From IMG/VR virus record IMGVR_UViG_3300025736_000014, positions 5,708 to 69,707 of that record: a stretch of 64,000 nucleotides of DNA; one strand, given 5' to 3'. The notes beneath the pieces were generated by a model, which searched no databases, was not told the DNA's origin, and saw nothing but the letters and a program-made list of their open reading frames with translations. Positions 44 through 39,692 of this stretch are shown piece after piece (positions within the stretch are counted from its first letter, which is position 1; every line of letters begins with the position of its first letter). The DNA is from a virus. Both the position numbers and the translations under genes were made by a program.

Positions 44-562
44 TTATGATTCATCATATATCCAAGTGAATCCACCATAAGGAGTGTCTCCAGCAGGAGC
101 CGAAGCACCTGATGTCAACTGAACTCTCAAATATGAAGGTCCATAACCTGTTGCACTTCCTAGCGTAAGTGTAGCTAGGGCAATAGCAGCATTGGTAGCT
201 GAACCAGTTGGAACACCAGTATCACTAGCACCACCAGCGGTAGCTGCTGTAGCAGATGCAGTTGATTGTGTATAACCAGCAGCACTTGTGCCAACAGCGG
301 CATAGTTTGTGTTTGTGAATGTAGTTGATTGGTAAAATCGAATATTACTAAAAGTATTTGTTGCGTTTGTAGAAAAATAAGGTCTAAAGTGTAGACCAAA
401 AGAGTTCTGACCAGCAGGAATATTTGAACCAGCAGAATTATAGTTCTGTGTACCAGCGTTAGTAGCTTGCTTGAAGTTCCAAAGAGAACCTGTAGCACCT
501 AGTAACGAAGCAGAACCAGTATCTGATCCATATTGCTGAGCAACACTAAAAGTAGCAGCCAT
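44..562 (-). CDS. Ala/Gly/Thr/Ser-rich putative virion structural protein
   Basis: 172 aa ORF, GGAGG-like RBS (AAGGTGGTGA), low-charge beta-rich composition, downstream of head genes. Confidence 0.5.
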   Translation of the reverse strand: MAATFSVAQQYGSDTGSASLLGATGSLWNFKQATNAGTQNYNSAGSNIPAGQNSFGLHFRPYFSTNATNTFSNIRFYQSTTFTNTNYAAVGTSAAGYTQSTASATAATAGGASDTGVPTGSATNAAIALATLTLGSATGYGPSYLRVQLTSGASAPAGDTPYGGFTWIYDES

Positions 563-3846: not shown

Positions 3847-6549
3847 TTATTTTACCTCTTTTATCCTTTGGGCGTTTACTCTTATCCAATCTATCAAGCC
3901 AGGATTTTCATCCTTACCTGGTTGGCTGTAGTAATCCAAAAGAGCCTTTCCTGTTAACGCTCGAGATTGAGCCATACGAGCAAAATTTAAGGCGTGGAAA
4001 TAGTGGTCAGTTCCTTGCCTGGTCTCAACCCAGAAAGCAGTTTCCTCACCAGTTCTTCTGTTTTTCTTCGTAACTCTCGTTAACGATCTTAACTGGTTAT
4101 AGAAACCTGGAACTGTTTCTATGTTCCTTGGCAGCTCTACCACCTTATTTTGTATATCACTTACAAGATAATCCAGACTGATCGTCCTGTCAAGTTTAAC
4201 CTCATATTTTATATTGTCCCACCTAAAATATTCTTTGACAGTAAACTTGGATGACGGATAGGTTGCTGCAAATATCCTCCTGGGAAATTTCTCTATCAAT
4301 TCTTTTACTAACCCCTGTTCTGGCAATTTATCAACGACAGCAATTTTAATATCATAAGCTCCCATAACACTCTCAATGCTATTAGCTGGTCCGAAGAATT
4401 TGCTAACAATACCTGCCCAAACTACACGATATCCTTCGCCTTTTATTTTCTGGACAACAACAACGTTATGGACTTTACTACCAATATCAATACCAGCGAA
4501 ACAAGACTTTTTGGATTCAATAGGAATCTCATACTCTTTTTTACATGCGTTTAACTCAGAAATTTGGACAACCTGTCCTGAAACCTCGTAAGGAAGCCCA
4601 AGGTCTTGATTATAAAACTGCTGTAAAGCAGAAAAACCTATAAGTTTTGCACTCCGATATTTCTTAACAATATCAGCAATAGTTACTGATGGATTATACA
4701 TCCCATTAACTCTATATCCATGAACATCACTAGATGGGTTTTGAGCTTCCCATCTACCATCAACAATTCTTTTCATCTTCTTTTTACACTGACGGCAAAC
4801 ACAAGTTTTATTTTTATAATTAATATTCTTAAAGAAATCTAACTCTTGCCATAATCCACAATTCTTACACTTAATCTGCCATACTCTTTGATCGCTATCT
4901 AAATAGGCTTGGTGAATAGCATGCTTTGGTAGAGTAGGAGTAGAAATTTCACGTCTCCACTTTAGATCAGAAGCGTTCATACGCTTATCAATAAAAGGAA
5001 CATTCCTTTCGTCAAACCTATCTCGTTCATCTAAGAAAACACAATCAGCATCAACAGAAATAATCTGTTTCTCGTTTGTGCTACCACGAAAATAAATATC
5101 TCCTTTGCCTATCTTTTTTAAACCCAACGTCTCGACTCTTTTTCCCTGAACAGACTCAACCCGATCTTTTAAGTAGTCAGACATGTTAAGAACTGGATTA
5201 AGACGAGCTTGGACAAACTCTTGTAACTGCTTCTGGGCGGGGAATGTGTTACCAGTCCAATAAATTGATCCCTTTCTCCTAGCTAAAAATGTTCCGTTAT
5301 CTGTTCTTGGACACCAAACAATACCATCATAGTCAATATGCTTCCTATGTAACTTCCTTACAGATATATTATTAGATAGATATAATTGCATATTAGATGA
5401 TCCGTCTTTTCTTTTTACAATCCTTGTTGATATGCCAGCTAAAGAGCAAACCATAGTCCATATGTCAATTCTTTGCTTATTCTTCTGTGTAAAGGCTCTA
5501 ACTAGATTGCCTCTCTTTGTTTTTCTTCTCCACCCGTCTGCATCTAGTGATGTTTCTATAAATATATTCAATTGGTTTTTTGTTAAAGATAAAATAAATT
5601 CTATTGATGGAACTTTGTTTGGCATTACTAACCTTATTTTTCTTGCTACCTCTCCCTTAAACATAAGCTGAACACAATTAGAGTCGTTATTGGAAAGATG
5701 TTCTTTATAGCTAAGTTTGTTGAGTTTTAGACATCTTTTTATCTTCTGAACTTTATCATGATTAACTTTCTCTGATTGTGTTATACCTATTAAACTTGGT
5801 CCTATGCCTCGAATTCCTTTTCCCTGTGCTTTTGCAAAGTGTCCATCTGTCCAAACCCAAGCACATAATTCAACAAATTGATTTGAGTATGTTTTGTCCT
5901 TTGGTAAATCGGCACAAGAAACAGCACGAGGAATATATTTATCTCCAATAAACATATCTTTGGTTTGTGTAAAGTAAAAACCCTGCTTCTTATGTTTGTT
6001 GATCCACCCATCTTTTACTATCCATCTATGATTGTTAGTAACAAGTGCAGAAAACTTATTTGTCTCCAATAAAATAAGTTTAGTTTTAACCTTCTTGGTA
6101 AAAAGCTCTTTAGATTTTTTCCACTCACTCTTTCCAGTTATTTTATTCATAGTAAGTATAACTTCACCATCTCTTATCTGATTAAACCTTAACCACCCTC
6201 TTTTAGATAAAAGCTCTGTTTTTTCGTCTACGCAATAGAGTACATTCTTCCCTAGAATATCAGCAATCCACACAGCCTCAGAAATACCACGCTCAGACAA
6301 TCCCATCTGTGATGCCTTGGTATACACAATATTGTGATACTGGTCAGTATAGATTTGTACTAAATATTTCCTGTCGGAGAATTTAAGAGGTTTCCCCTTT
6401 GAGGTAAGCCAAACTGCTTTTACCCAAGTGAAATAATCAGACAACTTCTCCTTCTTGAACTTCTGCTGTGCCTTTATTAGCAGTTGCTTCTCCAGCACGG
6501 CTAGCTCTTTCTCGTTTAACTTCTGCAAGGAGCTTGAGAACGCCTTCAT
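3847..6549 (-). CDS. terL: terminase large subunit, GpA-like, intein-containing
   Basis: KASQMGLSE Walker A variant, VFLDERD Walker B, ISTPT coupling motif, CxxC..CxxC, C-terminal nuclease (GIDIG, DHYFHA). Confidence 0.9.
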   Translation of the reverse strand: MKAFSSSLQKLNEKELAVLEKQLLIKAQQKFKKEKLSDYFTWVKAVWLTSKGKPLKFSDRKYLVQIYTDQYHNIVYTKASQMGLSERGISEAVWIADILGKNVLYCVDEKTELLSKRGWLRFNQIRDGEVILTMNKITGKSEWKKSKELFTKKVKTKLILLETNKFSALVTNNHRWIVKDGWINKHKKQGFYFTQTKDMFIGDKYIPRAVSCADLPKDKTYSNQFVELCAWVWTDGHFAKAQGKGIRGIGPSLIGITQSEKVNHDKVQKIKRCLKLNKLSYKEHLSNNDSNCVQLMFKGEVARKIRLVMPNKVPSIEFILSLTKNQLNIFIETSLDADGWRRKTKRGNLVRAFTQKNKQRIDIWTMVCSLAGISTRIVKRKDGSSNMQLYLSNNISVRKLHRKHIDYDGIVWCPRTDNGTFLARRKGSIYWTGNTFPAQKQLQEFVQARLNPVLNMSDYLKDRVESVQGKRVETLGLKKIGKGDIYFRGSTNEKQIISVDADCVFLDERDRFDERNVPFIDKRMNASDLKWRREISTPTLPKHAIHQAYLDSDQRVWQIKCKNCGLWQELDFFKNINYKNKTCVCRQCKKKMKRIVDGRWEAQNPSSDVHGYRVNGMYNPSVTIADIVKKYRSAKLIGFSALQQFYNQDLGLPYEVSGQVVQISELNACKKEYEIPIESKKSCFAGIDIGSKVHNVVVVQKIKGEGYRVVWAGIVSKFFGPANSIESVMGAYDIKIAVVDKLPEQGLVKELIEKFPRRIFAATYPSSKFTVKEYFRWDNIKYEVKLDRTISLDYLVSDIQNKVVELPRNIETVPGFYNQLRSLTRVTKKNRRTGEETAFWVETRQGTDHYFHALNFARMAQSRALTGKALLDYYSQPGKDENPGLIDWIRVNAQRIKEVK
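5248..6234 (-). mobile_element. intein (329 aa) with LAGLIDADG homing endonuclease in TerL
   Basis: starts CVDEKTELL, TxxH block B (TNNH), two LAGLIDADG-like helices (AWVWTDG, TSLDADG), ends WTGN followed by Thr; exteins rejoin as NVLY/TFP. Confidence 0.92.
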
Positions 6550-34835: not shown

Positions 34836-35134
34836 GAATTTATTTCAATTTTATACTTTTCTTTAACTTTTTCTTTTACATGTCTGAGGGAAAATAAAAC
34901 AGCGTCTAAGATGACGCTACGTTTAATGGATTCTTCCTTTTCGGGATCCATCTTGGAGATTCTATTGACGAATAACTCATCCTCAAATTGCTTTATCGCC
35001 CATAGAACATCTTTCTCAGCTTGCTTTGTTAACGCTACAATAGCACCTTCTGGGGTTTTGATATTTCGACCATAAATTAAATCCGCAGCTAAACTGCGGA
35101 TGTCTTCAGGTTTGTTTGAGTTTTCGGTTTTCAC
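34832..35134 (-). CDS. hypothetical protein
   Basis: 100 aa ORF. Confidence 0.55.
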   Translation of the reverse strand: MKTENSNKPEDIRSLAADLIYGRNIKTPEGAIVALTKQAEKDVLWAIKQFEDELFVNRISKMDPEKEESIKRSVILDAVLFSLRHVKEKVKEKYKIEINS

Positions 35135-35477: not shown

Positions 35478-35480
35478 GTG

Positions 35481-35555
35481 TCAGGATGACTGGATTTGAA
35501 CCAGTGATCTCATCGTCCCAAACGACGCGCGTTGGCCAGACTACGCTACACCCTG
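35481..35555 (-). tRNA. tRNA-Pro(UGG)
   Basis: cloverleaf, loop TTTGGGA. Confidence 0.9.
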
Positions 35556-35582
35556 TTTTAGCTATTACTGTTGTTGTCTTTG

Positions 35583-35655
35583 CAAGAACGGTAAGAATCG
35601 AACTTACCCACGGGGATTTGGAGTCCCCATCGCCAGCCTTGGAACATTCGCTCTT
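35583..35655 (-). tRNA. tRNA-Trp(CCA)
   Basis: cloverleaf, loop CTCCAAA. Confidence 0.9.
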
Positions 35656-35661
35656 ATTTTG

Positions 35662-35743
35662 CGGAAGGTATAGGATTCGAACCTATGAACGGTTGCCCGT
35701 TACGGCTTAGCAAGCCGCTCCATTACCACTCTGGCAACCTTCC
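35662..35743 (-). tRNA. tRNA-Ser(GCU)
   Basis: long variable arm, loop TTGCTAA. Confidence 0.9.
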
Positions 35744-35889
35744 TAGTCAATGGCGGAAGTTTACATAAGTTACGATAGGTTTGACAGCTCATGTCTGGTT
35801 CCGCCGAGCGACTATAAGCTCTTAATTATATGCTACGCCCCAACCTATTGGGGTGTTTAAAGTAGCACATCTATCTTACTTTATTTTAG

Positions 35890-35963
35890 TACTCCTAGCA
35901 AGATTCGAACTTGCAACCTGCGGTTTCGAAGACCGACGCTCTTGTCCATTGAGCTATAGGAGC
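35890..35963 (-). tRNA. tRNA-Arg(UCG)
   Basis: loop CTTCGAA. Confidence 0.9.
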
Positions 35964-35967
35964 TTTG

Positions 35968-36040
35968 TGAGTCATATAGGTCTCGAACCTACGACAACCT
36001 CGTTAAGAGCGAGGTGCTCTACCAACTGAGCTAATGACCC
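35968..36040 (-). tRNA. tRNA-Lys(CUU)
   Basis: loop CTCTTAA. Confidence 0.92.
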
Positions 36041-36046
36041 ATTCTG

Positions 36047-36121
36047 TGAGTGCAGAGGGACTTGAACCCCCGACATTCTGCTTAAAAGGCAGACGCTCTT
36101 GACCAACTGAGCTATGCACCC
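36047..36121 (-). tRNA. tRNA-Lys(UUU)
   Basis: loop CTTTTAA. Confidence 0.92.
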
Positions 36122-36125
36122 GTTA

Positions 36126-36394
36126 TCAGAAAGTAATAAGCCAGATTCTGTTTTATGATGACATCTGTCTATGCCTTCGAACTTTAGACCTTGGTGGAAC
36201 ATCCTCAAACGGTCAATTCGGAAGTTGCTGCGACGGAGATTGCTCGTTTCACCATGCGACCTTCTAGTAGAAGGCGGCGTGCTCGTCTCTGTAGCTCTAA
36301 TCAGCGGTTTTACCCGTCTTAGGATTTAACCTAAGCAGTCTGTTCCATGCAGTCTGGACTTTCCTCTTTTTCAAGCGTCATCTCGCTTTCTGAT
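36126..36394 (-). ncRNA. rnpB: RNase P RNA, compact bacterial type (~269 nt)
   Basis: GAGGAAAGTCC, GGTGAAACG and AAACAGAATCTGGCTTA conserved blocks; P1 TCAGAAAG/CTTTCTGA. Confidence 0.9.
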
Positions 36395-36396
36395 GT

Positions 36397-36468
36397 TACC
36401 AAGGTAGGTCTCGAACCTACAATCTTGTGGCTCAGAACCACACGTGTTGCCGATTACACTACTTGGCA
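36397..36468 (-). tRNA. tRNA-Gln(CUG)
   Basis: loop TTCTGAG. Confidence 0.9.
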
Positions 36469-36469
36469 G

Positions 36470-36541
36470 TGCCTCCACAAAGAATCGAACTTTGATCCGC
36501 GACTTAGAAGGTCGCAATTCTGTCCGTTGAACTACAGAGGC
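36470..36541 (-). tRNA. tRNA-Arg(UCU)
   Basis: loop CTTCTAA. Confidence 0.9.
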
Positions 36542-36545
36542 TTTG

Positions 36546-36618
36546 TACTCTCGATAGGAATCGAACCTATGTATGCCTGATTAGGAATCAGGTGCGTTGT
36601 CCCCTACGCTACGAGAGT
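36546..36618 (-). tRNA. tRNA-Arg(CCU)
   Basis: loop TTCCTAA. Confidence 0.9.
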
Positions 36619-36624
36619 ATTTTG

Positions 36625-36696
36625 TTGGGGAGATAGGATTCGAACCTATAACCTACTCTGTATAAGAGAGTTGCTCAGCCATTGAGCTAATCCCCA
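36625..36696 (-). tRNA. tRNA-Ile(UAU)
   Basis: stem ACTCT/AGAGT, loop CTTATAC. Confidence 0.85.
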
Positions 36697-36700
36697 ATTG

Positions 36701-36775
36701 TAGGCGATGAGGGATTTGAACCCCCGACGAACGGTATGTAACACCGCCACTCTGACCAGGCTGAGTTAATCGCCT
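36701..36775 (-). tRNA. tRNA-Val(UAC)
   Basis: loop GTTACAT. Confidence 0.88.
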
Positions 36776-36779
36776 ATTG

Positions 36780-37095
36780 TGGACTTGGTGGTATTGAAAC
36801 CACGTCCAGACTATTAATTTAACATCATCTACATGTTTAGTATCCTAATGGATGCGTAAGGTATATGACACCCTCATCAGCGTTTTTGATTTTAAGCTCA
36901 AATAGCAAAAGCGTAGTTTGCGTTGGTTGGTGAAAAAAACATGCCCACAAACGAAACGATTGTTTCTTTCACGTCCTCTTTAAGTTGGGCGAGGAAACCC
37001 CTAATTGTTTTTGCAATTATGTCTTTGGACCTTTAACGATGTGTCAATCGACATGCAGATATTAAACTTGTAATCTGTCGAAACTATACAAGCCC
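36780..37095 (-). ncRNA. ssrA: tmRNA with a 38-codon tag
   Basis: 5' GGGCTTGTATAGTTTCGAC, 3' T-arm plus CAAGTCC-A acceptor with G3.U70; ATAATT-GCA resume context; tag ORF 37014-36898. Confidence 0.9.
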
Positions 37096-37198
37096 ATATG
37101 CGGCTATAAACCATATCTTACGACTTAGATTTACGCCGTTAATTCCCCTCTTGAAACCCTTACGAGTGAACAGACGCTCTTTCGAGGTAGGGACTGTG

Positions 37199-37270
37199 TA
37201 GATGAGATTGGATTCGAACCAATGATCTCCTCTGTATCAGAGAGGTACCTTACCGCTTGGCTACTCATCT
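37199..37270 (-). tRNA. tRNA-Ile(GAU)
   Basis: loop CTGATAC. Confidence 0.9.
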
Positions 37271-37305
37271 GTAGCTGAGTATAACACGGATGTAATACTT
37301 CAGCA

Positions 37306-37382
37306 TGGTGCTACTTGAAAGATTCGAACTTTCACTACTCGGGTTTTGAATCCGATCCCTCTACCAGTTGGGGTAAAGTAGC
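37306..37382 (-). tRNA. tRNA-Leu(CAA), short variable loop, CCA encoded
   Basis: loop TTCAAAA, 5-nt variable region. Confidence 0.85.
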
Positions 37383-37435
37383 AAACGGGGCACGTTCGGG
37401 ATTCTTCGGAGTTCCTCAGATTCCCCATGCCCGTG

Positions 37436-37509
37436 TGCTTCAAATAGGATTCGAACCTATACTGTGTCGGTTTTAAGCCGATTACCTCTACCAGTTGGGT
37501 TACTGAAGC
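37436..37509 (-). tRNA. tRNA-Leu(UAA), short variable loop
   Basis: loop CTTAAAA, 5-nt variable region. Confidence 0.85.
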
Positions 37510-37588
37510 ATAGTAGCCTGTCTCCCAGCTTGTAGGCTACAAACCTACGCGTGGTTTCAAGAGTAAAAACTCTTTCAGACTACTTGTG

Positions 37589-37670
37589 TGCCAAATATAG
37601 GATTCGAACCTACATACCTTACGGCACGAGTTTCTAAAACTCGCGTGTATACCTATTCCACCAATTTGGC
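37589..37670 (-). tRNA. tRNA-Leu(UAG)
   Basis: loop TTTAGAA, long variable arm. Confidence 0.9.
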
Positions 37671-37671
37671 T

Positions 37672-37748
37672 TGGTGACGATAATGGGGATCGAACCCATA
37701 GTCTCTGCCTTGAAAGGGAAGTGTGTTGGCCATTTACACTATATCGCC
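37672..37748 (-). tRNA. tRNA-Glu(UUC), CCA encoded
   Basis: loop CTTTCAA. Confidence 0.88.
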
Positions 37749-37754
37749 TTTTAG

Positions 37755-37825
37755 TAGCCCTGTAGGGAATCGAACCCTAGCCTGATGTCTGAGAAACATC
37801 TGTCCTGCCTCTAGACGACAGGGCC
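37755..37825 (-). tRNA. tRNA-Glu(CUC)
   Basis: loop TTCTCAG. Confidence 0.88.
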
Positions 37826-37826
37826 G

Positions 37827-37898
37827 TAGCGGAATCTGAGAATCGCACTCAGTTAAGACAGGTTATGAGCCTATCGAGATACTTACCTCCCACCCGCT
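37827..37898 (-). tRNA. tRNA-Met(CAU), probably initiator-like, atypical T-loop
   Basis: loop CTCATAA; purine11-pyrimidine24-type D stem; T-loop TGCGATT. Confidence 0.75.
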
Positions 37899-37907
37899 AT
37901 ATTTAAC

Positions 37908-37918
37908 TGTCAAAGAAC
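37908..37918 (-). promoter_or_regulatory. internal boxA-like antitermination site
   Basis: minus GTTCTTTGACA in a tRNA spacer. Confidence 0.55.
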
Positions 37919-37927
37919 TTAAACGGG

Positions 37928-38012
37928 CGGAAGATGTAGGAGTTGAACCTACAAGACCTTGCGGTCGCTGTTTTCAAAACAGAGGCGGTGCCAATTACGC
38001 GTGTAATCTTCC
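37928..38012 (-). tRNA. tRNA-Ser(UGA)
   Basis: loop TTTGAAA, long variable arm. Confidence 0.9.
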
Positions 38013-38017
38013 ATGTG

Positions 38018-38101
38018 TGCTGATTCTAGGTAATGCTCCTAGGTTGGCGATTAGGCTACGGGTTTACAGTCCGCTCTCCCTCTTTAGAAGACTACATCAG
38101 C
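38018..38101 (-). tRNA. tRNA-Tyr(GUA), non-canonical T-loop
   Basis: loop CTGTAAA; T-arm CTAGG-AGCATTA-CCTAG. Confidence 0.7.
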
Positions 38102-38107
38102 TTTTTG

Positions 38108-38179
38108 TTACGGAACTAGGATTTGAACCTAGAATCTGAGGGGTCAAAGTCCTCCGTGTTGCCGTTACACTATTCCGTA
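38108..38179 (-). tRNA. tRNA-Gln(UUG)
   Basis: loop CTTTGAC. Confidence 0.9.
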
Positions 38180-38184
38180 GTTTG

Positions 38185-38257
38185 TGCAAAGGATTGGAAT
38201 CGAACCAATATCTGATGTTTTTCAGACATCCGTCGTGACCAACTTGACTACCTTTAC
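38185..38257 (-). tRNA. tRNA-Phe(GAA)
   Basis: loop CTGAAAA. Confidence 0.9.
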
Positions 38258-38262
38258 ATGTG

Positions 38263-38334
38263 AGACCTGTACTGGGATCGCACCAGTGCATAACCGTTTT
38301 GCAAACAGCTGCGTTTCTCCTTCGCCAACAGGTC
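38263..38334 (-). tRNA. tRNA-Cys(GCA)
   Basis: loop TTGCAAA, U73, T-loop TGCGATC. Confidence 0.85.
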
Positions 38335-38417
38335 ATGGGGGAAGTAAAATACAATATATGTCATCTCACTTCCCAAGATCAATCCAGTAAGGCTTTAAAA
38401 CCGAACCAGTTGATTTG

Positions 38418-38491
38418 TGGACAAGATGGGAATCGAACCCATCACAGTTTGCTTGCAAAGCAATCTCGCCAGCCTTGGTACATGCTCGCCC
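38418..38491 (-). tRNA. tRNA-Ala(UGC)
   Basis: loop TTTGCAA, G3.U70. Confidence 0.9.
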
Positions 38492-38499
38492 AATTTGTG

Positions 38500-38568
38500 T
38501 TGCGATAGTGGGAGTCGAACCTACTTGCAACTGATTATGATTCAGTGCCTCTACCCAAGATTATCGCA
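38500..38568 (-). tRNA. tRNA-Met(CAU), elongator-like, reduced D-arm (69 nt)
   Basis: stem ACTGA/TCAGT, loop ATCATAA. Confidence 0.65.
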
Positions 38569-38573
38569 GTTTG

Positions 38574-38647
38574 CGGCTTGTACGGGATTTGAACCCGTGA
38601 TTTCTACCTTGACAGGGTAGTGTCATACCAGACTAGACTAACAAACC
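38574..38647 (-). tRNA. tRNA-Asp(GUC)
   Basis: loop CTGTCAA, G73. Confidence 0.9.
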
Positions 38648-38653
38648 ATTCTG

Positions 38654-38724
38654 CACTCACGCTAGGATTCGAACCTAAATCTTCTCCTTAACAGGGAGTC
38701 GTTCTGCCGTTGAACTACACGAGT
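38654..38724 (-). tRNA. tRNA-Asn(GUU)
   Basis: loop CTGTTAA. Confidence 0.9.
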
Positions 38725-38725
38725 A

Positions 38726-38801
38726 TGGAGCTATATGTTGGACTCGAACCAACCACCTTCTGATTACAAAACAGATGCTCTACCAGATGAGCTAATACAG
38801 C
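38726..38801 (-). tRNA. tRNA-Thr(UGU), CCA encoded
   Basis: loop TTTGTAA. Confidence 0.92.
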
Positions 38802-38802
38802 T

Positions 38803-38814
38803 TGGAGCAAGATA
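38803..38814 (-). repeat. duplicated 3' end of tRNA-Gly, downstream of the HNH gene
   Basis: GAGCAAGATA at 38805-38814 and 39312-39321; this copy carries the CCA. Confidence 0.75.
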
Positions 38815-38815
38815 C

Positions 38816-39277
38816 TTATTCTTTCCAAGATTCTTGCCTTAACATAGTACCGATTGTACTATATGCTAATTTATATTTCTTTGCTAATCCCCTATGAGTC
38901 AAACTATAATCTTTAGAATAATCTTCTCTAATTTTTCTTACTAATTTCCAAGTTAGTTTGTGACATCCTTGCTTTTCTCCAGTTGCTCTATTACTTCTAT
39001 TTGGCAATCTATGTCTTTTTTTCGACATAGCATCGGCAGTATTTTCTTTCATGCTACCGAGAAACAAGTGTTTCGGATTAACACAAAGTCTATTATCACA
39101 CTTATGACAGACAACTTTATTTTTAGGAATTTTTCCAAAGTGTAAATTCCAACTTAATCTATGAGAGTCAACAGTTTTACCATCTACCTTTATACAGCCA
39201 TATCCAGTACCTCTATTGGCACCAGTCCATAACCAACAGGATTTAGTTTTATTAACTTTACTCCAAAATCTATCCAT
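38816..39277 (-). CDS. free-standing HNH homing endonuclease
   Basis: FWSKV..CWLWTG..GYG..HRLSW..VCHKCDN..CVNPKHL. Confidence 0.92.
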
Positions 39278-39312
39278 AAATAAAATAAATTATTTTATAA
39301 AAGTTAAATATG

Positions 39313-39383
39313 AGCAAGATAGGAGAATCGAACTCCTGTCAACTGATTGGAAATCAGTAGTTAAGCCACTTAACTAATCTTGC
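39313..39383 (-). tRNA. tRNA-Gly(UCC)
   Basis: loop TTTCCAA, U73. Confidence 0.9.
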
Positions 39384-39460
39384 TGGGGTAGTCGATGGGA
39401 TTCGAACCCATGTGGGTCACTTCACAGGCAACCTTCTGAGACCTCTCGAATACGACCACC
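39384..39460 (-). tRNA. tRNA-His(GUG), G-1 and CCA encoded
   Basis: loop CTGTGAA, G-1:C73. Confidence 0.9.
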
Positions 39461-39662: not shown

Positions 39663-39692
39663 AGTATACAAAAGTGTCGACACACTTGTCAA
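39663..39692 (-). promoter_or_regulatory. sigma70 promoter of the RNA operon
   Basis: TTGACA-N18-TATACT, with palindrome GTGTCGACAC in the spacer. Confidence 0.8.

Follow-up and report, generated by a model that had tools for sequence, protein, structure and literature searches.

The 64,000-nt stretch analyzed here (the window) covers positions 5,708 to 69,707 of the IMG/VR virus record IMGVR_UViG_3300025736_000014 and carries, on its minus strand, a tRNA array in which a predicted gene for the RNA subunit of ribonuclease P (RNase P) is embedded between tRNA-Gln(CUG) and tRNA-Lys(UUU). The parent record (76.7 kb; CheckV completeness, 74%) encodes a GpA-type large terminase, DNA methylases, an HNH endonuclease, and other phage families. 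The terminase, the matches to PHROG families, and the IMG/VR virus entry identify the record as a phage. The features of the locus, in window coordinates, are as follows.

39663 to 39692, minus strand: promoter-like site TTGACA-18-TATACT, ~200 nt upstream of the first tRNA (consensus match only)
35480 to 39459, minus strand: tRNA array of 26 tRNA genes, all on this strand (ARAGORN)
36777 to 37095, minus strand: transfer-messenger RNA (tmRNA) gene in the same array (RF00023, 98.8 bits)
36396 to 36468, minus strand: tRNA-Gln(CUG), immediately upstream, with 1 nt (C36395) between its discriminator and the first base of helix P1 of the RNase P RNA
36122 to 36394, minus strand: RNase P RNA gene, 273 nt (RF00010 match); RNA position n is window position 36395 - n
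36046 to 36121, minus strand: tRNA-Lys(UUU), immediately downstream, its G+1 coming right after the AAC tail of the ribozyme (3-nt linker)
35081 to 35101, minus strand: terminator-like hairpin, downstream of the array and of a 123-aa open reading frame (ORF) (consensus match only)

The search with Infernal and Rfam returned a match to RF00010 (RNaseP_bact_a) at 36121 to 36394 on the minus strand, with a score of 100.8 bits (E value of 1.3e-29) and an alignment running end to end over model positions 1 to 367. Since 36121 is G+1 of tRNA-Lys(UUU), the gene end was set at 36122; P1 closes at 36125 and is followed by the 3-nt tail AAC. The initial annotation, which had recognized conserved RNase P blocks at 36126 to 36394 between tRNA-Gln and tRNA-Lys and proposed this search, described the same object: five blocks were found, and the full-model match lies above the RF00010 gathering score (100 bits). 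Archaeal type A RNase P RNA, which likewise lacks helices P13/P14 and P18, was considered and rejected. Rfam clan competition retained the bacterial model for the window RNA, which grouped among bacteria in the tree described below, with three archaeal RNAs as a separate clade (100/99 support). In addition, the tmRNA gene in the array points to a bacterial host. Judged from its sequence, the window RNA is thus a genuine rnpB-type gene, i.e., a phage-borne bacterial class A RNase P RNA. A blastn search with this RNA and two other phage RNase P RNAs against 50,697 GenBank phage records gave no match. Minimum-free-energy folding of 274 nt yielded a z score of -1.61 and a structure different from the RNase P fold, an uninformative result in the case of a pseudoknotted ribozyme.

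The stretch is present in 20 public salt-lake DNA metagenome runs. The gene is identical in contigs from three further salt-lake samples (among them X8, record 20, which spans both tRNA junctions, and X9, record 28), and contigs of four runs showed zero sequence variants inside it. Because these independent salt-lake assemblies agree over the gene and its junctions, the arrangement is not an assembly chimera. The public runs listed for the stretch include no RNA run, which carries no weight either way on expression.

The protein partner was sought in the same record. The initial annotation had reported no RnpA-like ORF in the window; extending the PF00825 search to the entire 76.7-kb record (74% complete) also returned none, nor did this record contain a CCA-adding enzyme or an RNase Z-like gene. 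The protein subunit, the trimming of 3' ends, and the addition of CCA would therefore have to come from the host. Our preferred reading, to which we assign a probability of roughly 70%, is that the window carries a functional rnpB, derived from a host and placed in the tRNA operon of the phage, that is freed when the tRNAs are processed and needs the RnpA of the host.

Secondary structure and its conservation

Helices were mapped from the Rfam alignment and their pairs were checked in the window sequence. The 15 mapped helices, pseudoknots P4 and P6 included, consist of standard pairs throughout. The elements of the RNA are listed below in 5'-to-3' order of the transcript (CR, conserved region).

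36384 to 36394 (RNA 1-11) with 36125 to 36136 (RNA 259-270), minus strand: P1, 10 standard pairs
RNA 13-18 with RNA 233-238, minus strand: P2, standard pairs
36366 to 36375 (RNA 20-29), minus strand: P3, 3-bp stem with a GAAA loop
36353 to 36365, minus strand: CR-I, the 5' strand of P4, AGGAAAGUCCAGA, with bulged U37
36342 to 36346 (RNA 49-53), minus strand: 5' strand of P6, GGAAC, five Watson-Crick pairs with GUUCC of L17
36232 to 36340, minus strand: specificity domain (P7, P8, P9, P10, P11, J11/12, P12, and J12/13), standard pairs only
36244 to 36247, minus strand: P13/P14 site, 43 model positions missing (Rfam alignment, [43] versus [0])
36175 to 36224, minus strand: P15-P16-P17 arm (Rfam alignment and pair check)
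36196 to 36200 (RNA 195-199), minus strand: 3' strand of P6, GUUCC, in the P17 loop (L17), pairing with GGAAC in J5/7
36179 to 36185, minus strand: 3' side of the L15 internal loop, AAAGUUC, no GGU
36172 to 36175, minus strand: P18 site, 24 model positions missing (Rfam alignment, [24] versus [0])
36137 to 36151, minus strand: CR-V, the 3' strand of P4, ACAGAAUCUGGCUUA (Rfam alignment and pair check)

P4, whose formation the initial annotation had singled out as a check, does form: RNA positions 34-42 pair with 250-257 as 8 bp, with U37 bulged. P5 was also mapped, between P4 and P6. The specificity domain contains CR-II (ACAGAGA) in J11/12 and CR-III (GGUGAAA) in J12/13, with P12 at RNA positions 117-139. 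The window RNA thereby shares with Escherichia coli M1 RNA, the rnpB product, helices P1 to P5, the P4 and P6 pseudoknots, P7 to P12, P15 to P17, and CR-I to CR-V. It differs in its length (273 nt versus 377 nt), in lacking P13/P14, P18, and the L15 GGU, and in a P3 of only 3 bp. Moreover, E. coli rnpB is a free-standing chromosomal gene, whereas the phage gene is embedded between tRNAs. In E. coli, the L15 GGU pairs with the tRNA 3' CCA (PMC11143913). CCA is encoded by only 4 of the 26 array tRNA genes, so that an RNA without GGU fits these substrates.

To assess conservation of the fold, we used the sequence and mapped structure of the window RNA to build the covariance model R1, to which we aligned 82 other RNase P RNAs of cellular bacterial, archaeal, metagenomic, and phage origin. 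Six phage RNAs aligned too poorly with MAFFT for structural analysis, and model-based alignments were used instead. Standard pairs occupied 95.1% of the cells across the 83 RNAs, compared with 57.9% after shuffling and ∼40% with partners slid, in an alignment that was fitted to the window's own structure and is biased in its favor. Changes on both sides were found at 65 of 66 pairs. P1 (helix 1) was 96% paired, with both-side changes at 9/9 pairs, whereas P4 was 99.4% paired, with covariation in its last 3 pairs. The helices of the specificity domain (helices 6 to 12) were 88 to 98% paired and showed compensatory changes, and pairing of P6 reached 82.9% versus 32 to 54% for slid partners. The window RNA carries the consensus base at 40/40 of the columns that are at least 95% conserved among the 82 other RNAs.

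Conservation of this kind bears on what the RNA might do. It could instead be a competitor for host RnpA, one that takes the place of the host RNase P RNA on the protein and diverts or restrains the maturation of host tRNAs, with its own catalysis secondary. Such a role would agree with the dependence of a phage without rnpA on the host pool, and the build of the RNA is that of cellular RNAs coexisting with RnpA. A protein sponge, however, would not need a conserved catalytic apparatus, and the catalytic and substrate-binding parts are all kept (CR-I to CR-V, the bulged U of P4, the AA of J5/15, J11/12, and J12/13). The heavy load of phage pre-tRNAs likewise argues for more activity, not less. 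We therefore consider a role as competitor improbable compared with that of a functional enzyme.

Reduced build shared with Microgenomatia

The initial annotation set the short RNA against typical bacterial RNase P RNAs of 350 to 400 nt and proposed a naturally minimized catalytic core. That size range holds for model bacteria only, and not for Microgenomatia, a class of the Candidate Phyla Radiation (CPR). A two-block pattern (GGAAAGTCC, a gap of 189 to 219 nt, then ACAGAANNNGGCTTA) was scanned in metagenome and species-representative genome collections and retrieved many cellular RNAs in the same size class. R1 scored best on contigs without a nearby tRNA (up to 150.6 bits). Among genomes, its highest scores were on one metagenome-assembled genome (MAG; 141.4 bits) and to Candidatus Beckwithbacteria (138.1 bits), Collierbacteria (108.8 bits), and Daviesbacteria (95.7 bits), the three named groups being CPR Microgenomates; the next group was Burkholderiales (83.5 bits). 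In a class-wide sample of unselected genomes from the class holding the Beckwithbacteria genome (Microgenomatia), R1 matched 117 of 151; the top score was 159.6 bits, and ∼30 genomes reached at least 100 bits. In the control phylum Elusimicrobiota, to which an Elusimicrobia-labeled MAG belongs, matches were limited to 3 of 61 genomes (best score, 46.6 bits). One unpublished genome (G072, locus L270) is counted only in the 117/151 and in the 25 loci inspected for neighboring tRNAs, and enters no alignment or tree.

Builds were compared with 23 aligned RNAs out of the 25 best in the Microgenomatia sample. These RNAs are 261 to 322 nt long, and P13/P14 and P18 are missing in 23/23, with the same 4 to 5 nt at the P13/P14 site. 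Their P3 regions range from 3 to 37 nt, versus 11 nt in the window RNA. Only 2/23 have GGU in L15, and in one (L271) L15 reads AAAGUUC, identical to that of the window RNA. Further likenesses are a P15-P17 arm of ∼50 nt, a J11/12 of 12 nt, and a CCA-binding motif that is mostly missing. The differences lie in sequence (identity of ∼60 to 70%) and in setting, as the Microgenomatia RNAs are cellular and located away from tRNAs, whereas the window RNA sits in a phage tRNA array. Indeed, none of 25 cellular Microgenomatia loci had a tRNA within 1.5 kb of rnpB. By these alignments, the window RNA falls wholly inside the normal range of cellular Microgenomatia RNase P RNAs, and the phage-specific feature is the setting of the gene between tRNAs, not the size of the RNA.

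Reduction in CPR bacteria has already been published. According to Lui et al. (2021), P13, P14, P16/P17, or P18 is often absent from the RNase P RNAs of CPR bacteria, and 23 of 35 such RNAs have no CCA-binding motif (PMC8172020). As this loss is normal in CPR members (PMC8172020), the absence of P13/P14 and P18 does not exclude membership in class A. What is new here is that this phage copy has the CPR/Microgenomatia build. The idea of phage-driven minimization must be corrected accordingly, since the same size and the same missing helices are normal in cellular Microgenomatia RNAs. Nor is the RNA reduced to a catalytic core: the catalytic and specificity (P7 to P12, J11/12, and J12/13) domains are both kept, the losses being confined to P13/P14, P18, and most of P3. 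Minimal RNase P RNAs include the Min 1 and Micro P constructs, the 276-nt type B RNA of Mycoplasma fermentans, and the type T RNA of Pyrobaculum, which are of similar length and have dropped peripheral stabilizing helices while keeping the core. Those RNAs either were engineered in the laboratory or are encoded in cellular genomes and belong to other structural types, whereas the window RNA is a natural viral type A RNA that retains both P12 and its specificity domain.

RnpA (PF00825) is encoded in 8 of 9 tested CPR genomes with such an RNA, two of which have a P3 as small or smaller, indicating that the reduced build works with RnpA in cells. This result bears on a further alternative, namely, that the ribozyme is protein independent in vivo, or that an unrecognized phage protein replaces RnpA, perhaps favored by a high-salt habitat. 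No rnpA was found in the record, the sources are salt-lake metagenomes, and bacterial RNase P RNAs act alone at high ionic strength in vitro (PMC11143913). However, the interdomain struts P13/P14 and P18, whose loss cuts RNA-alone activity in E. coli (PMC11143913), are missing here, cellular RNAs of the same build coexist with RnpA, and the record in which rnpA was sought is only 74% complete. We regard protein independence as very improbable, and dependence on host RnpA remains our preferred reading.

Placement of the RNA among its relatives suggested a tentative donor. In a maximum-likelihood tree of the 83 RNAs, the window RNA fell inside a clade with all 28 Microgenomatia RNAs. Its sister was the phage RNA L004 (99/94), on a long branch. 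This sister grouping is probably a long-branch effect, as the two phages share no detectable terminase or DUF2201 protein and the 3' end of L004 is poorly aligned. With L004 left aside, its closest neighbors, with identities reaching 70%, came from one MAG, metagenome contigs, and Microgenomatia. Two other potential host markers were uninformative. The phage tmRNA model R2, built from sequence only, matched both groups weakly (≤22 bits in Microgenomatia, in 5 of 101 genomes, and 26 bits in one Elusimicrobia-labeled MAG) and gave no host signal, and the terminase was rejected because GpA-type homologs, 27 to 33% identical in 16 of 401 Microgenomatia genomes, are too weak and too generic. No RNase P RNA was detectable in the Elusimicrobia-labeled MAG into which one syntenic relative of the phage is binned. 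Capture of the gene from a Microgenomatia-like bacterium, which the phage probably infects, is the best lead, not a result.

Proposed role in tRNA maturation and occurrence in other phages

Spacers of 0 to 5 nt separate the genes at 15 of the 27 array junctions. With spacers this short, RNase P 5' cleavage is the cut that separates neighboring tRNAs. The phage T4 tRNA operon is likewise a polycistronic array with very short spacers that needs RNase P for separation (PMC11143913). T4 uses the host enzyme only, whereas the window phage also carries the catalytic RNA subunit. We propose that the ribozyme is transcribed within a ∼4.6-kb tRNA/tmRNA polycistron. RNase P cutting directly in front of tRNA-Lys(UUU) would generate its 3' end, and its 5' end would arise from maturation of the tRNA-Gln(CUG) 3' terminus. 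Cleavage in trans by the host or phage enzyme is to be expected, because the 3-nt tether looks too short for a reaction in cis. A partial precedent is Bacillus subtilis RNase P, which is reported to process its own RNA precursor (PMC11143913). Once released, the RNA would assemble with host RnpA, the likely partner given that the phage record lacks rnpA, and the extra RNase P capacity would separate the closely packed phage pre-tRNAs and pre-tmRNA. A benefit is most plausible when transcription in the host is halted or its RNA is broken down. That the ribozyme helps mature the phage's own polycistronic tRNAs, as the initial annotation had suggested, would be the most economical function for a real homolog placed in a tRNA array without rnpA.

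This layout recurs in other phage contigs. The same strict two-block pattern run on IMG/VR in five gap-size bins identified 65 contigs with an RNase P signature, which lay inside a tRNA cluster (at least 3 tRNAs within 2 kb) in 40 of the 65 and in 29 of 36 within the reduced-size classes. All 11 Rfam-examined contigs contained an RF00010-like RNA of 235 to 301 nt, located within 16 nt of a tRNA in 9 of them, mostly at 0 to 7 nt. The RNAs of these other phages (L002 to L012 and L300 to L353) thus resemble that of the window in being RF00010-like and in lying in, or adjoining, a tRNA cluster, often 0 to 7 nt from a tRNA. They differ in that they are not close relatives (R1 scored at most 94.8 bits on the other phage contigs, and the phages tested have no terminase in common with this one) and in that some measure 150 to 240 nt, whereas the window RNA is fairly complete. 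Full-text literature searches, with subscription-only papers outside their reach, retrieved no report of an RNase P RNA encoded by a phage or another virus, and viral RNase P RNA is unmentioned in a 2024 RNase P review (PMC11143913), a 2021 jumbo-phage comparison (PMC7824862), and a 2026 jumbo-phage review (PMC13282480).

Several observations weigh against a functional gene of Microgenomatia origin. Syntenic relatives of the phage, which share its ATPase-DUF2201-glycan locus with an ATPase 62 to 69% identical, carry fewer tRNAs (14, 5, or 0) and lack an RNase P RNA in the 10-kb flanks of the ATPase gene. Since these relatives lack the RNA in the examined flanks, we judged the gene to be unconserved in the phage lineage; it resembles an acquisition particular to one lineage, which moves together with large tRNA arrays and may be recent and dispensable. 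Searches of IMG/VR with single neighboring proteins as queries returned no relatives. The RF00010 score exceeds the curated cutoff by a margin of 0.8 bits, and strong protein dependence is likely, as E. coli RNA without P18 is >3,000-fold slower in the absence of protein (PMC11143913). Regarding the donor, support for the clade with the Microgenomatia RNAs is only 89/71, a single clade of all phage RNAs was not rejected in the approximately unbiased (AU) test (p of 0.35), the affinity is based on this single RNA, and one contig of a syntenic relative is binned in an Elusimicrobia-labeled MAG.

The gap among the syntenic relatives, within the DNA examined, and the score barely above the cutoff are also what would be expected of a passenger or relic, i.e., a host rnpB acquired with tRNA genes that does not, or no longer, aid infection and is decaying. 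The RNA itself offers few signs of decay. No helix is broken, the 40/40 near-invariant positions and both pseudoknots are intact, and every pair is kept despite an identity of ∼60 to 70% to the nearest cellular RNAs; divergence of the sequence with all pairs retained points to selection on structure. Furthermore, the gene is fitted within 1 to 3 nt between two tRNAs, unlike any of the 25 cellular loci, and dozens of unrelated phage contigs show this arrangement as well. We accordingly give little credence to a relic. This reading, like the competitor and the protein-independent ribozyme, fits the fully preserved catalytic and substrate-binding architecture less well than does a functional, RnpA-dependent rnpB released by tRNA processing. 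A bolder version of the latter, possible but doubtful, is that a ∼100-kb phage of CPR (Microgenomatia) bacteria carries a host-type ribozyme as a tRNA-punctuated cistron, with its 3' end self-cut in trans, and thereby sustains tRNA maturation after shutting down a host with a ∼1-Mb genome. The ribozyme would in this case act together with at least 26 tRNAs and the tmRNA.

RNase P RNA is usually treated as a strictly cellular (and organellar) housekeeping ribozyme. If the bolder version is true, a virus would supply the catalytic subunit of an essential, universal ribozyme, and the locus would be one of very few handles on CPR-phage biology. A phage with the catalytic RNA but without the protein raises a testable question of viral takeover of tRNA maturation. 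A natural, compact, tRNA-flanked ribozyme would be useful for biochemistry, and its resemblance to Microgenomatia RNAs provides a rare lead to a host among uncultured CPR bacteria.

Additional observations concern the array and the related contigs. Of the 22 array tRNA genes without CCA, 21 have a C immediately behind the discriminator, and the sequence following that C is usually A-rich (N73-C-A...), i.e., one C short of CCA; this regularity may be linked to 3'-end trimming or repair. Two gaps in the array, 35744 to 35888 (145 nt) and 37826 to 38106 (281 nt), gave no ARAGORN or Rfam match even at an E value of 0.1 and could hold unrecognized structured RNAs or degenerate tRNAs. An HNH endonuclease gene (PF13392; window 38816 to 39277) lies inside the array between tRNA-Gly and tRNA-Thr, and the array of a related phage also has an HNH_3 gene (L283:5943-6401). 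That contig (L283, a 64-kb Logan contig) and L282 (a 104-kb contig in an Elusimicrobia-labeled MAG) are syntenic relatives without an RNase P RNA. Both have 14 tRNAs, mostly on the strand opposite to the genes, and L282 appears to be a phage contig binned into a bacterial MAG. Among the IMG/VR signatures, the full-size ones of L326 to L328, L333, L337, L340, L343, and L346 lie at the very ends of "viral" contigs with identical 46-bit scores and look like the same host rnpB at prophage borders, not phage genes. L004 is a complete 96.9-kb IMG/VR phage genome with direct terminal repeats, at least 36 tRNAs, a tmRNA, and an RNase P-like RNA bearing a ∼22-nt insertion in J2/4; by terminase, this phage is unrelated to the one described here. 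Finally, the tRNA/tmRNA/RNase P RNA cluster of a 114.8-kb IMG/VR contig also includes a GOLLD RNA (L010:2438-2853; RF02032, 199.7 bits).
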